Assembly: GCF_050920415.1 (NCBI RefSeq)
Contig: NZ_CP169309.1
DNA from: Escherichia coli
GTDB lineage: Bacteria; Pseudomonadota; Gammaproteobacteria; Enterobacterales; Enterobacteriaceae
DNA length: 64,000 bases
Strand: one strand, 5' to 3'
The translations under genes were made by a program, and so were the position numbers. Below the pieces are notes generated by a model, which worked only from the letters and a program-made list of their open reading frames with translations, did not search any database and had not been told where the DNA came from. Positions 27,417-38,250 of the stretch are shown here, piece by piece. How positions within the stretch are numbered: the first letter of the stretch is position 1; each line of letters starts with the position of its first letter.

Positions 27417-29738
27417 TTAGTGGCAATCGCCAGTGGTGCTGGCTGCACAGCAACTGCTTACCGATTTGCGTGTTGCCAGCAGTTCGATATCGACCCGGCT
27501 ACGTGCGCGACGCAGCAAACCGATGACCACGATGTTAAACAGGATAACCGCCAGAATGCATACCAGACTGTAAGTTGGATGCTGGCTGTAGCTGGCGACC
27601 TGGTAGAACAATGTTGCCAACGAGTAAGCGATATTTAGCCCCCACAGGATGGAGAAGCCCATCCAGCCACGGCTTGATTCACGGGCGATGGCCCCCATCA
27701 CCGAGATACACGGTACATACAGCAGAACGAAAATCAGGTAGCTGTAAGCAGCTGCTGCGCTTCCAAATTTCTGATCCATCACGCCCATCGCTCCGGTACC
27801 CATTTCACCGTCGCCTTTGCTCGCTTCAATGGGGTTCATCAGTACGCTAAGACTGAAGGTGTCTTTCAGACTCTGCCAGGTTTCATCTACCGCGCTGAAT
27901 AGCTCTTCACCGAGGTTAAATTCCGCCGGATTGAACTCTTCGTCCTGAATATTTTCTGCGGTGTAGAGGGTGTTGAGCGTACCCACCACCACTTCTTTCG
28001 CCATTGCGCCCGTGAACAGGCCAACCGTTGCCTGCCAGTTATCTTCATGTACACCAATCGGCTTGAAAACTGGGGTGATCACCCGGCTGACAGAAGCCAG
28101 TGCCGAGTCGTTGATGTTATCGACGATTTTCCCGCTCAGAGAGAAGCTGTTGAAAGCGCTCAGGAAAATGCTGACGATGATAATCACTTTACCAGCACGC
28201 AGAACGAAGCCTTTCAGACGCTGCCAGGTCTGGATAATCAGGCTTTTAACGTGTGGTACATGGTAGACCGGTAGCTCCATGACAAACGGCGTCGCTTCAC
28301 CGCGCATGATGGTGTACTTGAGCATCAGGCCAGTCAGCACCGCCATCACAATACCGAGCATATACAGCGAGAAGACCGCCAGCGCACCGTTCTGCCCGAA
28401 GAAGGCAGCCGCGAATACGGCGAAGATAGCCAGACGCGCGCCGCAGGACATAAACGGTGCCATCATGATGGTCATCAGACGTTCACGCGGTGCATCAAGC
28501 GTACGTGCGCCCATTACCGACGGTACGTTACAACCGAAACCAACGATCAGCGGTACAAAGGATTTCCCGGGCAAGCCCAGCGCCTGCATCAGACGGTCCA
28601 TCACAAACGCCGCACGCGCCATATAGCCGGAGTCCTCGAGGAAGGAGAGGAACAGGTACATCATGCCGATCTGTGGCACCAGTGGCAGAACGGTGTTAAT
28701 ACCGCCACCCAAGCCCTGGGCGAGGAAGATAGTCAGCCAGTCCGGGAAGTGGAGCGTGTAGCCAATCCACTGAATACCATGCACAAATAGCGCCACGGAG
28801 CCGACGTCAAACAGCGGCTGTAACGCCCCGCCGATGTTGATAGCCAGCAGGAACATCAGGTACATCACAAAGAGGAAAATCGGCAGACCGAGGAAACGGT
28901 TGAGCACGATTTTATCTACCGCAGTGGTGAAACGGCTGGGTTCTGCCGTCAGGGTGTTGCTTACCACATCACAGATGGCAGCAATGCACTGGTAACGCGC
29001 ATCGGCAATGTGCAGCGCCGGATCGTCCATCTCATTACGCAGACGGGCGAGGGCGGCATCAAGATGCTGCGACGCTTCACCGGCGTAGGCGCGGCTGTAG
29101 ATATCGCCTTCCAGCATTTGCAGGCCCAGCCAGCGACGTTGTTTGAGCGGGATGTCGGAAGGCATCACTTTTGCCAGTGAATCTGCTTCGTTGAGCAGCG
29201 GCTGTGCGTAATGCACCAGTTCCACATTCTCGTTAGCTTTATAGCGATCAATCGCCAGCTTGAGCGCTTCAATACCGCGACCACGAGTTGAAACCAGCGG
29301 GATCACCGGGCAGCCAAGACGCGCCGACAGAGCATCAATTTCAATGCGAATATTTTGCTTCTCGGCAATGTCGAGCATGTTCAGCGCCACGATGCAGGGA
29401 ATGCCGAGTTCCAGCAGTTGTAGCGTCAGGTACAGGTTACGCTCAAGGTTAGACGCATCCACCACGTTAATCAGCAGGTCAGCGTCGCCACTCAAAATGT
29501 AGTGACAGGCGATTTGCTCATCGAGCGAGGTCTGCGATGAGATGGTGGTCAGAGAATAGGTGCCGGGGAGGTCCACCAGCGTGACCTGATGATCGGTGGT
29601 GGAGAATTGCCCTTCTTTACGTTCGACGGTAACGCCAGCCCAGTTACCTACACGCTGACGTGCGCCAGTGAGCTGGTTAAATAAGGTTGTCTTGCCAGAA
29701 TTTGGATTACCAATTAAGCCAATGGTTAATTTTTTCAT
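27417..29738 (-). CDS. feoB: Ferrous iron transporter FeoB (G-protein-coupled permease)
   Basis: ORF 27417..29750; start at [25 protein letters not shown] (GTPase P-loop) gives 773 aa; large C-terminal membrane domain. Confidence 0.95.
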
Positions 29739-29754
29739 TGTTGTTATCACCGTA

Positions 29755-29982
29755 TTAACAGGAAACCGCTTCCACTTCTAATAAGGCCAGATCTTTTTTG
29801 CGTAATACCAGGCTCACACGACGGGTTTCGATATGAATGGGGTCGCCAAGTGGAGCGACGCGCACCACATTAAAAGAGGAGCCAGGTAACATGCCAAGAG
29901 AAAGCAGTTTTTGGCGATATGCCGGGCTGATTTCACGGGAAAAGCCAGTGATTTTCCACGCAGTATCTGGAGTGTATTGCAT
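29755..29982 (-). CDS. feoA: Ferrous iron transport protein FeoA
   Basis: 75-aa ORF immediately upstream of feoB. Confidence 0.92.
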
Positions 29983-30092
29983 AGGTGCCTACTTGTTTCT
30001 CATTAACTGGATAACTACCTCATGGGGCGTTTGACAGCGACATGAGACCAGATGATTTGCCAACGAAGGAGAGATTAAATAATCAACAACAC

Positions 30093-30111
30093 AATGATAA
30101 TGAGAATGGTT
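30093..30111. promoter_or_regulatory. Candidate Fur box in the feoABC promoter region
   Basis: aatgataatgagaatggtt, ~110 bp upstream of the feoA start; first 9 nt match the Fur consensus core AATGATAAT. Confidence 0.5.
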
Positions 30112-30316
30112 TCTATCAGCAATACTTAAAATGTGTGCGAATGTTGGTTTAGATAATAATCTGCGTGAATGTTGATGTGGCTCAAGGTTATATCGCAGCG
30201 AAAATATAATTCGAATGGCGAATTATCAGGGCGGGTTAATGTTTAATTAAGGTTTCATTTGTTAATGAAGTGATAAATATTGACGAAATATAGTGTGAGT
30301 TTGGTTGTGGAATAAA

Positions 30317-30346
30317 AATGCCGGAGATATTCTCCGGCATTTTTAT
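30317..30346. terminator. Hairpin terminator downstream of yhgF/tex
   Basis: ccggagatattctccgg perfect hairpin with A/T runs on both sides. Confidence 0.55.
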
Positions 30347-30365
30347 GTCAGGCATGGCGTTCGTT

Positions 30366-30395
30366 GCCAGATGCGGCGTGAACGCCTTATCTGGC
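30366..30395. repeat. REP unit
   Basis: gccagatgcggcgtgaacgccttatctggc fits the REP consensus. Confidence 0.55.
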
Positions 30396-30421
30396 AGGTT
30401 TACGTTTGTCTATCAGGGCGT

Positions 30422-32743
30422 TTAACGTTTTTTGCCCATTGCTGCCGCCAGCGCATCCATCATTGCGCTATTACCGGCAGGCTGCGCTTCACGCCCGCGC
30501 GGTTTGGCTGCCGGGCGGTTGTTTTGCGGGCGTTCATTACCGCCCCCGCGACGGGCGTTGGTTTCGCCAGGCTGCTCGTCCAGACGCATAGTCAGGGCGA
30601 TACGTTTACGCTGAAGATCCACTTCCAGCACTTTCACCTTCACAATGTCGCCCGCTTTCACCACGGTATGCGGATCTTCCACAAACTTGTTCGACAATGA
30701 AGAGATGTGAACCAGGCCGTCCTGATGTACGCCAATATCAACAAAAGCACCAAAATTGGTGACGTTGGTCACCGCACCTTCGAGGATCATACCCGGTTGC
30801 AGGTCGTTCATTGTCTCGACGCCATCGGCAAACTGGGCGGTTTTAAATTCCGGACGCGGATCGCGACCCGGTTTTTCCAGCTCTTTGATGATGTCAGTTA
30901 CCGTCGGCACACCGAATTTCTCATCAGTAAAGTCAGACGCTTTCAGGTTACGCAGTTCGCTGCTGTTACCCATCAGATCTTTCAGTGCCTGCTGTGTTGC
31001 TGCCAGAATGCGTTCCACCACCGGATAGGCTTCCGGGTGAACAGTAGAGGCGTCCAGCGGGTTGTCACCGTGGTTAATGCGCAAGAAGCCTGCGCACTGC
31101 TCGAAGGCTTTTGGCCCCAGGCGGCTCACTTTTAACAGTTGCTGGCGGTTCTGGAACTGGCCGTTCTCATCGCGCCAGGCCACAATGTTTTGCGCCATCA
31201 TGCGCGTCAGGCCCGCCACTCGGGTTAACAGCGGAACGGAAGCGGTGTTGAGATCGACGCCAACGGCGTTTACGCAGTCTTCTACTACTGCATCCAGTTT
31301 GCGGGCCAGCTGCGTCTGGCTGACGTCATGCTGATACTGACCTACGCCGATAGATTTCGGATCGATTTTCACCAGCTCCGCCAGCGGATCCTGCAAACGA
31401 CGGGCGATAGACACCGCGCCACGCAGCGAAACATCGAGATCCGGGAACTCCTGCGCCGCCAGTTCGGAAGCCGAGTAAACCGACGCGCCTGCTTCGCTGA
31501 CGATCACTTTCTGTGCGGTCACTTTCGGAAACTGCTTCTGAACGTCGAGATAGAAACGCTCGGTTTCGCGGGAAGCCGTACCGTTACCGATTGCCACCAG
31601 TTCAACGTTATGTTTTTCACACAAGGCAGCAACGGTCATCGCTGCTTTTGCGGCTTGTCCGGTGTGCGGATAAATGGTGTCGGTCGCCACCAGTTTACCC
31701 GTCGCATCGACTACCGCTACTTTTACCCCGGTACGCAGACCCGGATCGAGGCCCATCGTTGCACGCAGTCCGGCAGGGGCCGCCATCAGAAGATCGTGCA
31801 GGTTACGGGCAAAGACGTTGATTGCTTCATCTTCCGCGCGTTCACGCACTGTGCCCATCAGTTCGGTTTCCAGATGCATCAGCACCTTGATGCGCCACGT
31901 CCAGCTCACCACGCCTTTGCGCCAGCTATCCGCCGGGGCATTGTTCAGGCGCAGGCCAAGGTGATCCATGATGATTTGCTCGCAGTAGCTCTCTTTTGGC
32001 GGTTCGTCGAACTGCGGATCGGCATTCAGCGAAAGTTGGAGTACGCCTTCGTTACGCCCACGGAACATCGCCAGCGCGCGGTGAGAAGGCACCGTTGACA
32101 GCGGTTCGTGATGATCGAAATAGTCGCGGAATTTCGCCCCTTCCTCTTCTTTACCGTTCACCACCGTAGAAACCAAATGCGCGTTCTTCCACAGATAATC
32201 ACGCACTTTCGCCAGCAGCGCGGCATCTTCGGCAAACCGTTCCATCAGGATATAGCGCGCGCCGTCCAGCGCGGCTTTGGTATCTGCTACGCCTTTATCG
32301 GCATCAACATATTGTGCAGCGGCGACTTCTGGCGTGTGCGACGGATCGTTCCACAGTAGGTCGGCCAACGGCTCAAGCCCTGCTTCAATGGCGATTTGCC
32401 CGCGGGTGCGGCGTTTAGGTTTGTAGGGCAGGTAGAGGTCTTCGAGTTCGGTTTTACTTAAGGTGGCGTTGATAGCATTCGCCAGTTCGTCGGTCAGTTT
32501 GCCTTGCTCGGAAATGGACTTGAGGATTGCCTGACGTCTCTCTTCCAGCTCGCGCAGATAGCTCAGACGCGTTTCCAGATTACGCAACTGCGTGTCATCC
32601 AGACCGCCGGTGATTTCCTTACGATAACGTGCGATAAACGGCACAGTATTCCCTTCGTCAAGCAGGCGAACGGCAGCGTCAACCTGTTCCGGGCGCGCCT
32701 GAATTTCACCCGCAATAATGCGGCAGAACGAATCATTCATCAT
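30422..32743 (-). CDS. yhgF: Tex-family transcription accessory protein (YhgF)
   Basis: 773-aa ORF with a C-terminal S1 domain. Confidence 0.93.
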
Positions 32744-33316: not shown

Positions 33317-33543
33317 CTCGTTGATTCCCTTTGTCTGTTTGATAATGCGCACATTGGGTATAACGTGATCATATCAACAGAATCAATAATGTTTCGCCGA
33401 ATAAATTGTATACTTAAGCTGCTGTTTAATATGCTTTGTAACAATTTAGGCTGAAATTCATACCAGATTTAGCTGGTGACGAACGTAAGCTTTTTTAAGA
33501 ATACACGCTTACAAATTGTTGCGAACCTTTGGGAGTACAAAGA

Positions 33544-35772: not shown

Positions 35773-37059
35773 TTGATGCAACTTACCAACGAAGAACAAG
35801 CACAGATTGCTCGTATAAAAGAAAAAATCCCACGCATTGCCGCACTGGATCCTGAATGTAAGTTATTCGGTTCTGAAGGTTGGAAATATCAATGGCCGAA
35901 GCCTGCCAGCGAGGCGGAAATAGCTTCCTGGGAGAAAAAACATAGCGTCACTTTGCCACGGGAATATCGAATTTTTCTTCGCTATATCGCTAATGGCGGT
36001 CCGGCACATGCCTACGGTCTTGAATCTTTAGGCGGTACAGATATTTATGGCGATATAACAAAAGAAAGCCCTGTACCGCTTTATATGACGCAGCAGGATG
36101 TTGATGTGTTGAATGCTGGCCGTACAGAAGATGATGAAGAATATAGTTTTTTTGACGGCGCATTGACCATTCTCACCCTGGGATGTACTTATGATATTTG
36201 CCTGGTGGTGACGGGGCAGTATCGCGGAAGGTTAATGCTGACTGATGGTGATGAAGATTATCCGTTTGATTTTATATATGATAAAAATTTCCTCAACTGG
36301 TATGAACGCTGGCTGGACGATTTTATTGCTGGCATGAGTATGAAGGGTTTCGATAGAAGTTTGCCAGGAACGCAAATTCAACTGCGTGAGTGGTTTTTAA
36401 CTGAGAAAATCCCGGATTTACGTAGATCCATTTTATTCTCGCTATGCCGTTTTCCACAGATAGAACCCGAAACTTTTGCCCTTTGGGAACATGTTTGCCG
36501 CACAGAGAATGATAAAGAATTGTGTGAAGAGGCATTCACAAGATTACGCCAAAAAAAAGGTTCTTGTGCTGCAGATATTTTTCGACTCTATTTTACAATG
36601 CCAGGTGAATTACGTGATATTGCTATTAAAGATCTCCGTTTTGCCTGTAGAGATAGTGTGGTGAATATTGAGGATTATATTCATTCACTGTTAATAATAA
36701 TGCCTGAACTTGACGATGACACTCTATCCTCAGCTGTCTTTGCTATACGAGAAACAGAGTATAATAAATATGATACTTTTCTGCCGCTTCTCGAACGTAT
36801 CACTGATGACCGTCAGCAAACATTATTGTGGGCGATGAGTAAGGCGCCTGATTTCAATGAAAGCCGAGGATTCGTTGAGTTGGTATTACCGCTTTTTGCA
36901 TCATCAAAGATGGAGAATGTAAGGAAGGCTATTTTGTTGCTCATTGAAGTTAAAGATAATCGTATTCCACCATTGGTTGATGAAGCTGCAACTCGTTTCC
37001 CTGAACTGACCATTTTACGAGAAAACTACTATCTCAGGACGTGGGGACATAAGCCATAA
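35773..37059 (+). CDS. SMI1/KNR4 (SUKH-1)-like domain protein with C-terminal alpha-helical repeat region; immunity-protein-like; function unknown
   Basis: 428-aa ORF in a low-GC insert. N-terminal region has SUKH hallmarks: W..E.K....LP.EY..FL....NGG (ASEAEIASWEKKHSVTLPREYRIFLRYIANGG) and the distal FL.WYERWLDDFI motif. Domain call from motif memory, not HMM search. Confidence 0.7.
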   Translation: MMQLTNEEQAQIARIKEKIPRIAALDPECKLFGSEGWKYQWPKPASEAEIASWEKKHSVTLPREYRIFLRYIANGGPAHAYGLESLGGTDIYGDITKESPVPLYMTQQDVDVLNAGRTEDDEEYSFFDGALTILTLGCTYDICLVVTGQYRGRLMLTDGDEDYPFDFIYDKNFLNWYERWLDDFIAGMSMKGFDRSLPGTQIQLREWFLTEKIPDLRRSILFSLCRFPQIEPETFALWEHVCRTENDKELCEEAFTRLRQKKGSCAADIFRLYFTMPGELRDIAIKDLRFACRDSVVNIEDYIHSLLIIMPELDDDTLSSAVFAIRETEYNKYDTFLPLLERITDDRQQTLLWAMSKAPDFNESRGFVELVLPLFASSKMENVRKAILLLIEVKDNRIPPLVDEAATRFPELTILRENYYLRTWGHKP

Positions 37060-37096
37060 ATTAATGGTTCAGAAATGATCTAACGCGGAGAAAAAT

Positions 37097-37627
37097 ATGA
37101 TCAGGGAACATATTCAGCAAGCGATAAATAATAGGTTAGCATTTGATGGCCCATTCAATGTTGTTCCTGAACCTGCAAGCACTGCGTTTGATGGCCGGAT
37201 CCCGACATTGAAAAACGGTGTCTGGCAGAAGGCCAGCCCTATGTTGCAGGCGCGTTTTGCACATTGTGGACGTTGGTTAAGCGCTACACATGGAAGCTGG
37301 CTAAGTATAAGTGACATGGAAACGCTTTGGCAGGAACACATAGAAGATACGTTTCTTGATGAAATCAAAATGAATGCTGTAGCTTCAAGTGATAATTGGG
37401 ATAACCATGCCTTGGGACTATTTCGTTCTCATCGCCTGTCACTTTTTGCCGGTAGTGATTACAGTTATGAAATGGTTTTTCTCCTTTGGCTAGATAGTAC
37501 CGTTGAGCCAGAGGTCTGGGTTTATGACTGCAATGGGGAATCACGTTATAAAGATCTTAATGATTACCTGAATGCATATATTAATGATGACGTAAGCGCC
37601 TGTGAGCGCTCCTGGCGAGTAGAATGA
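37097..37627 (+). CDS. Hypothetical protein, possibly a second SUKH-like immunity-type protein
   Basis: 176-aa ORF 37 bp after the previous gene; C-terminus (EVWVYDCNGESRYKDLNDYLNAYIND) resembles SUKH C-terminal motifs; weak assignment. Confidence 0.6.
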   Translation: MIREHIQQAINNRLAFDGPFNVVPEPASTAFDGRIPTLKNGVWQKASPMLQARFAHCGRWLSATHGSWLSISDMETLWQEHIEDTFLDEIKMNAVASSDNWDNHALGLFRSHRLSLFAGSDYSYEMVFLLWLDSTVEPEVWVYDCNGESRYKDLNDYLNAYINDDVSACERSWRVE

Positions 37628-38250
37628 ATAGCCCCCCTTGCCCCTTTGATCCACAAACCGCACATTACCTCGGTACAGTGCAAATCCACTACAGCCCAAC
37701 CACCTTCAACGCTGCCGTTAAGCATTATACCTGTTACATTAAAAAGCGTTTTAAAGGGTTTAAATGGGGAATTGGAACCGCTGGCTTATTGGCTATATTG
37801 CCCATGATCCCACAATGGTTGAAACCTTCTCATGACTTTAAACTCAACGCAATCAGTACGTTAATTCTTCTATTAATGTTGCCACTCCTCTTATCAATGT
37901 TCCTGTTAATCAGCAGAAGAATTAACGATTTTAAGTCAAAAACAAAGCAAGTTACTTTTACGAAACCCGTGCGTTATGCGTTTTATTTCGAGGGGATTGT
38001 TTTTTATGAATCTCATCAGCAGGGCATACTTCGCTGGGAAGATTTGTATAGCATTGACTATGAAGAAGATTATTTGTGGCTTTTTCTGCATTTACCGAAG
38101 AGTTTTCCCAGAGAAGCGACGAAAGCGTTTTGCGATATTTTCATTCCCGCCAGCGCGATAAAAGCGCAGCCTGAACTGGATACGTTTTTTCGTGAAACAC
38201 GCCACTCGCTGGATTATCTGTTTGTCCCGTTTAATTCTGACAGAAAATAA
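37624..38250 (+). CDS. Hypothetical two-TM membrane protein (YcxB-like architecture?)
   Basis: 208-aa ORF; start overlaps the upstream stop (ATGA); two adjacent hydrophobic helices (WGIGTAGLLAILPMIPQWL, ISTLILLLMLPLLLSMFLLI) followed by a ~100-aa soluble domain. Confidence 0.6.
   Translation: MNSPPCPFDPQTAHYLGTVQIHYSPTTFNAAVKHYTCYIKKRFKGFKWGIGTAGLLAILPMIPQWLKPSHDFKLNAISTLILLLMLPLLLSMFLLISRRINDFKSKTKQVTFTKPVRYAFYFEGIVFYESHQQGILRWEDLYSIDYEEDYLWLFLHLPKSFPREATKAFCDIFIPASAIKAQPELDTFFRETRHSLDYLFVPFNSDRK

Follow-up and report, generated by a model that had tools for sequence, protein, structure and literature searches.

Iron repression of feoABC, which encodes ferrous-iron uptake in Escherichia coli, is documented by both reporter and transcript data. 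Fur represses a feoA-lacZ fusion in the absence of oxygen, and in the cited reporter assays this repression is seen only anaerobically. Transcripts of feoA and feoB increase in a fur deletion (Gerken et al., 2020), and the expression table for strain CFT073 gives a value of ~10-fold for feoA. The first-pass annotation of the DNA studied here, which described a Fur-box-like sequence upstream of feoABC as fitting the known iron repression of feo, agrees with this literature.

Fur sites at feoA have also been predicted. An information-theory model built on 24 sites, with a genome cut-off of 10 bits that is exceeded by 412 genome sites, places at feoA one cluster of overlapping sites of 10.9 bits (3538059) and 13.4 bits (3538065) and another cluster with a 10.5-bit site at 3538006; no Fur footprint on the feo promoter existed by then (Chen et al., 2007; PMC2189734). 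An offset of 6 bp is a documented arrangement for two Fur dimers, described either as a hexamer array or as two 7-1-7 units, which allows the dimers to sit on opposite faces. Several regulators other than Fur have been mapped to the same region. An FNR site of 14.6 bits was reported at feoA (Myers et al., 2013), and an ArcA site was located at 3537888-3537908, corresponding to -191..-171, which implies a transcription start at 3538079 in U00096.2 (Park et al., 2013). An RstA/OmpR-like motif is situated at -165..-150 from the ATG, and a short fragment with this motif was not shifted by OmpR (Gerken et al., 2020). For feoABC of Yersinia pestis, two promoters have been reported, an upstream one that spans an FNR box and a downstream one that is repressed by Fur.

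The analysis described below indicates that the segment 30093-30117 is, with high probability, the primary Fur operator of the feoABC promoter in the present strain, acting by occlusion through Fur bound at overlapping sites.

Gene layout and the feo allele of the strain

The window, i.e., the whole 64-kb stretch of E. coli DNA (64,000 nucleotides) that was analyzed, contains the feo genes downstream of yhgF/tex (Table 1). The intergenic region between feoA and yhgF (29983-30421, 439 bp) is AT-rich, with a G+C content of 40%. Of the 5426 complete E. coli genomes, 5424 have a match to the 686-bp feoA-yhgF stretch, and in strain MFDS1022581 the match is 100% identical. Because only seven records are at least 99% identical over this stretch, the lineage is uncommon. 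Sequence comparison shows identity to K-12 MG1655 from the feoA ATG to about -170, so that data mapped in K-12 carry over directly to this part. At its yhgF end, the intergenic region has 17 bp fewer than in K-12, close to the yhgF stop codon. A REP-like element with a hairpin lies downstream of yhgF at 30303-30404, and the 17-bp shortening is directly upstream of it. The Rfam matches in this interval (REP-like; naRNA4, STnc390) all remain below threshold.

Table 1. Coordinates of genes, promoter elements, and regulator sites at the feo locus (window positions unless stated otherwise; positions with a sign are relative to the implied start)
Feature	Position	Strand	Remarks
feoA CDS	29982..29755	minus	ATG at 29982; ORF list, RefSeq annotation of identical DNA
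feoB	29738..27417	minus	ORF list, RefSeq annotation of identical DNA
feoC	after feoB	minus	ORF list, RefSeq annotation of identical DNA
yhgF/tex	32743..30422	minus	upstream of feoA, same strand
Transcription start	30088	minus	literature-implied (Park et al., 2013); 5' UTR ~106 nt (29983-30088)
-10 hexamer TATCAT, feoA promoter	30094..30099	minus	5/6 matches to TATAAT; 17 bp from TTGCTG; -11..-6
-35-like hexamer TTGCTG	30117..30122	minus	3/6 matches; TTGATG in most genera
Proximal Fur site A	30093..30111, centre 30102	minus	AACCATTCTCATTATCATT in gene orientation; -23..-5
Fur site B	30099..30117, centre 30108	minus	GATAGAAACCATTCTCATT; -29..-11; overlaps A, 6 bp further upstream
MG1655 Fur ChIP-exo peak P104	30087-30120	unstranded	3538047-3538080 (U00096.2), 1978 offset
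RstA/OmpR-like motif	30132..30147	minus	CCAACATTCGCACACA; just upstream of -35; moderately conserved
Degraded remnant of K-12 distal Fur box	30152..30170	minus	best 1.4 bits after 5 substitutions
FNR box	30172..30185	minus	TTGAGCCACATCAA; centre 30178.5, about -90.5
ArcA direct-repeat site	30259..30279	plus	TTGTTAATGAAGTGATAAATA; supplement of Park et al., 2013; also OmpR EMSA site (Gerken et al., 2020)

Fur sites upstream of feoA and their occupancy

The sequence at 30089-30115 is ACACAATGATAATGAGAATGGTTTCTA, and the 19-mer AATGATAATGAGAATGGTT that the first-pass annotation had quoted from it is present at 30093-30111, 111-129 bp upstream of the ATG, in accordance with the proposed distance of about 110 bp from feoA. 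As quoted, the 19-mer is the strand antisense to feoA, which is immaterial because a Fur site is dyad-symmetric. The assertion that the 5' half of the consensus is matched exactly was correct only after a shift of 3 nt: in the quoted register, 10 of 19 positions agree by hand count, whereas GATAATGA at 30096-30103 corresponds to consensus positions 1-8 and gives a total of 13/19 in its register. The consensus GATAATGATAATCATTATC reaches 13/19 in two registers, which start at 30090 and 30096. The operator core is TCTCATTATCA, and the far half-site, GGTTTCT, is degenerate. Since 31 strand-positions of the window match at 13/19 or better, counting consensus matches carries little weight by itself, and comparison with either consensus, the 19-mer or the 15-mer from ChIP-exo, was rejected as a test for being too unspecific.

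A palindromic 19-bp position weight matrix (PWM) for Fur was therefore trained de novo on 16 Fur-regulated intergenic regions of K-12, with feo excluded (fhuA, fepA-fes, fepD-entS, fepB-entC, fiu, fhuE, tonB, yncD-yncE, cirA, mntH, nrdH, exbB, nfeF-nfeR, fhuF, sodA, and ryhB). The search assumed one site per sequence and used every second 19-mer as a seed; the best solution, with the consensus AATGATAATCATTATCAAT and 15.5 bits, was reached by all eight top-ranked seeds, and the training sites score 8.8-24.4 bits (median 18.6) when left out one at a time. With this matrix, sites A and B score 13.5 and 12.6 bits, which places them second and third among the 63,982 positions of the window, where only six positions reach at least 10 bits. 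A third and weaker register centred at 30114 scores 5.6 bits, and no site of at least 8 bits other than the operator sites was found in the intergenic region of the window. A 7.4-bit match at 30269-30287 overlaps the ArcA/OmpR site. When the 439-bp intergenic region was shuffled 5000 times with dinucleotides preserved, 151 of the shuffles (3%) contained a site of 13.5 bits or more, and 12 (0.24%) contained two sites of at least 12 bits placed 6 bp apart.

Two further matches to the matrix were noted within coding sequences. The highest score anywhere in the window (15.4 bits, at 36667) belongs to a match within an ORF of 428 aa with a SUKH-1/SMI1-KNR4 domain, and this match is probably a compositional false positive. 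This ORF is the first of three that occupy 35773-38250 directly downstream of envZ, where the G+C content is 38-48% in 500-bp windows vs. 53-57% in the flanks; the second and third ORFs have no Pfam match. The K-12 neighbor downstream of envZ is presumably pck, and none of the three ORFs is pck. The other match, AATGGTTAATTTTTTCATT at 29721-29739 (11.3 bits), overlaps the start codon and first codons of feoB (MKKLTI); in 32 of 80 species its score is 10 bits or more. It probably arises from conservation of the coding sequence.

The published coordinates were transferred with an offset of 1978 between U00096.2 and NC_000913.3, anchored on two published pairs of sequence and coordinate, namely the FNR box at 3537982 and the ArcA site at 3537888-3537908. 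After conversion, the two proximal sites of Chen et al. (2007), 3538065 and 3538059, coincide exactly with the PWM centres of A and B, respectively, and the published matrix thus returns 13.4 and 10.9 bits at the same centres, above its 10-bit cut-off. The feo operator accordingly shows the overlapping arrangement documented for Fur, its two centres standing 6 bp apart. Two Fur dimers probably bind these overlapping sites.

Fur binding in vivo has been mapped in three strains, and the peaks of MG1655, W3110, and CFT073 all fall on the operator block. The MG1655 ChIP-exo list contains a single peak for feoA (P104), on the proximal site. The W3110 ChIP-exo peak (4100359-4100371) overlaps the 25-nt composite site, which is located at 4100364-4100388 in that genome, and the CFT073 ChIP-seq summit (3966911) is inside the composite site at 3966892-3966916. 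These published peaks lie on sequence identical to that of the window. In the MG1655 table, the fec peaks fall inside fecR, for which reason fec was left out of the training set, and the peak designated ryhB is ~125 bp from the Fur box that the PWM finds adjoining the ryhB start. Since the fec and ryhB rows are unreliable, MG1655 was not relied on alone and was cross-checked with W3110 and CFT073. Another MG1655 peak, P103, detected in both iron-replete and iron-starved cells, maps to ~33380-33430 in the greB-ompR intergenic region. The best PWM score there is only 4.1 bits, and Fur binding at P103, if real, is therefore non-canonical.

Taken by itself, the sequence speaks for the feo Fur site moderately better than chance; it is ChIP together with conservation that makes the case a strong one. 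Both checks that the first-pass annotation had suggested, a scan with a Fur matrix and a comparison with mapped elements, turn out in its favor.

Promoter context and conservation

In gene orientation, the feoA promoter reads TTGCTG (30122-30117), a 17-bp spacer, TATCAT (30099-30094), and 5 nt to the start. A promoter and terminator scan of 29950-30450 returned nothing; its rule requires at least 4/6 matches at -35, and TTGCTG has three. In a looser scan, TTGCTG-17-TATCAT is among seven candidates with 8 of 12 matches, and it was singled out from these because of its conservation and the start site in the literature. The weak -35 hexamer fits an activator-dependent promoter. The TSS supplements of Kim 2012 and Ettwiller 2016 have no feoA entry. 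The 5' UTR of E. coli feoA folds no better than shuffled sequences (z-score 0.1).

With the start implied by Park et al. (2013), the two Fur sites span -5..-29, where they overlap the -10 hexamer and the whole spacer and touch the -35 hexamer. The Fur site thereby serves, as the first-pass annotation had anticipated, as a positional anchor for the promoter, fixing in the window the -10 hexamer, the start at ~30088, and a 5' UTR of ~106 nt. Because the Fur sites overlap TATCAT and the spacer, the arrangement corresponds to classical promoter occlusion. When cytoplasmic Fe2+ is sufficient, Fe2+-Fur dimers would occupy 30093-30117 and exclude RNA polymerase from the -10 hexamer and the spacer of this sigma-70 promoter, and feoABC would then be repressed even in the presence of the upstream activators, namely FNR (about -90.5), ArcA/OmpR (-191..-171), and perhaps a response regulator at the box just upstream of the -35 hexamer. 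From these data we infer that repression works by occlusion, that two dimers take part, and exactly where transcription starts in this strain.

Cross-species comparison was carried out with a FeoA query that gave 80 species-representative Enterobacteriaceae loci and with an alignment of 26 genera. The best-conserved 19-nt stretch upstream of feoA is 30112-30094 (mean majority fraction 0.98 vs. 0.65 overall in the 26 genera), followed by 30133-30115, which includes the -35 hexamer, and by the FNR box. TATCAT is almost invariant in the 26 genera, and in TTGaTG-17-TATCAT the 17-bp spacer varies as little as the hexamers do. A Fur site of at least 10 bits is found in all 80 loci, and the highest-scoring one corresponds in ~72 of the loci to the orthologous block GATA(A/G)AAAC(C/T)ATTCTCATTATCATT, in either register. 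In 76 of 77 loci, the FNR box and the Fur core stand 77-78 bp apart, whereas the distance from the Fur site to the feoA ATG varies from 49 to 249 bp, implying that the Fur site is placed relative to the promoter and not to the coding sequence. In the Enterobacter/Leclercia/Lelliottia group (seven loci and others), the Fur centre is only 49-58 bp from the ATG; this group is without ~65 nt of the 5' UTR found in Escherichia, Citrobacter, and Salmonella.

The FNR box of the window is identical to the feoA site of Myers et al. (2013). A class II geometry, with the box centred at -41.5, was considered and rejected for it: its centre is ~82 bp from the -10 centre and ~90.5 bp from the implied start, and the -12..-7 position that a class II arrangement requires reads AACCAA, with no -10-like hexamer. 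The feo FNR box has the geometry of a distal, class I-like activator site. The alternative that would reverse this assignment has the main anaerobic start at ~30137, at an FNR class II promoter, with Fur acting downstream as a roadblock; in a tandem variant, Fur at 30093-30117 represses only a second, downstream promoter, as has been proposed for Y. pestis feoABC. The two promoters reported for Y. pestis, the unusually long distance for FNR activation from ~-90.5, and weak -10-like hexamers (GATTAT, TATTAT) just downstream of the FNR box are in its favor. Even so, the two versions together appear improbable, since the hexamer required at -12..-7 is absent, there is little conservation between genera downstream of the FNR box, in contrast to the nearly invariant TTGaTG-17-TATCAT, and the start of Park et al. 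(2013) maps to 30088.

The conservation of the operator block and that of the -10 and -35 hexamers that it overlaps are confounded, and the block could have been preserved solely as a core promoter, its likeness to a Fur box being incidental and Fur control being exerted elsewhere or indirectly. That the consensus match is only 13/19 and is equaled at 31 strand-positions, that shuffling attains the PWM score in 3% of cases, and that promoter elements overlap the Fur site all speak in favor of this explanation. It is nevertheless very improbable: three independent Fur ChIP datasets centre on the block, the invariance of the spacer exceeds what promoter function alone requires, and the intergenic region of the window offers no other Fur site of at least 8 bits. 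Direct Fur control through the overlapping sites A and B thus remains the preferred reading.

Loss of the distal K-12 box and comparison with known systems

Two Fur boxes have reportedly been annotated at feo by Kammler et al. (1993). The distal one in K-12, ATTGAGTCAGATTATTATT, is centred at -179 from the ATG, beside the FNR site, and scores 13.7 bits with our PWM; five substitutions separate it from the remnant in the window. The first-pass annotation had held that a Fur site mapped elsewhere in the interval would speak against its proposal. The distal K-12 box is such a site insofar as it is predicted, but the MG1655 ChIP-exo list shows no separate peak for it, and this strain carries only a degraded form. 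In the species comparison, the median score at the distal position is 1.8 bits, and just one of the 77 loci attains 10 bits there. The distal box is at best a weak, Escherichia-restricted accessory that is absent in this strain. That it is the functional operator and the proximal site secondary, as the two annotated boxes and the K-12 scores (13.7 bits, and 10.5 bits in Chen et al., 2007) might suggest, is very improbable, given its 1.4 bits in the window, its rarity among the species, and the position of the only MG1655 feoA peak on the proximal site.

Judged from its distribution across species, it is the proximal operator that is ancestral and conserved, rather than the distal K-12 box; this, and its being locked 77-78 bp from the FNR box in Enterobacteriaceae, are the additions made by the cross-species comparison. 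The feo Fur operator itself is already known biology, and for it the present work confirms the annotation and contributes nothing new. The sole strain-specific point is the lost distal box. At 99% identity or more, the window allele of the 76-bp distal segment occurs in just 29 of the 5425 complete E. coli records (~0.5%), and ~88% of records, the K-12 type included, have a version of the segment that is 90-95% identical. It is conceivable, although we regard it as unlikely, that this rare feo allele, which eliminates the distal box and keeps the proximal operator, is a natural cis-regulatory variant with an altered iron/oxygen set-point. If the distal box lets Fur interfere with FNR-dependent activation, the set-point of ferrous iron uptake in this lineage should be measurably different.

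Among known systems, the P2 promoter of Y. pestis feoABC resembles the present locus in that a Fur site lies over the -10 and -35 elements of the promoter nearest feoA and an FNR-like box is situated further upstream. On the other hand, according to its authors the DNA shows no detectable resemblance to the E. coli promoter, and the Y. pestis promoter escapes iron repression aerobically, with FNR and ArcA having no effect there.

The classical Fur boxes of siderophore and iron genes, such as those of sodA, ryhB, fepB-entC, and fhuF, described as 7-1-7 units or GATAAT hexamer arrays, share with feo the dyad motif aaTGATAATnATTATCAtt, and like them the feo sites overlap at a distance of 6 bp and lie over the -10 and -35 elements. 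The feo sites are weaker, however (13.5 and 12.6 bits, where most training sites reach 19-25 bits), GGTTTCT as one of the half-sites is degenerate, and the feo promoter depends in addition on the anaerobic activators FNR and ArcA.

The closest system is the feoABC operator of K-12. From the ATG to ~-170 the two are identical, and both overlapping Fur sites, the -10 and -35 hexamers, and the FNR box are shared. The differences are confined to the upstream part, where the distal box scores 1.4 bits in the window vs. 13.7 bits in K-12, the ArcA/OmpR site (30259-30279) carries a single A-to-G substitution, and the yhgF-proximal segment is shorter by 17 bp. Iron repression of ferrous-iron uptake is wired in this strain as in K-12.
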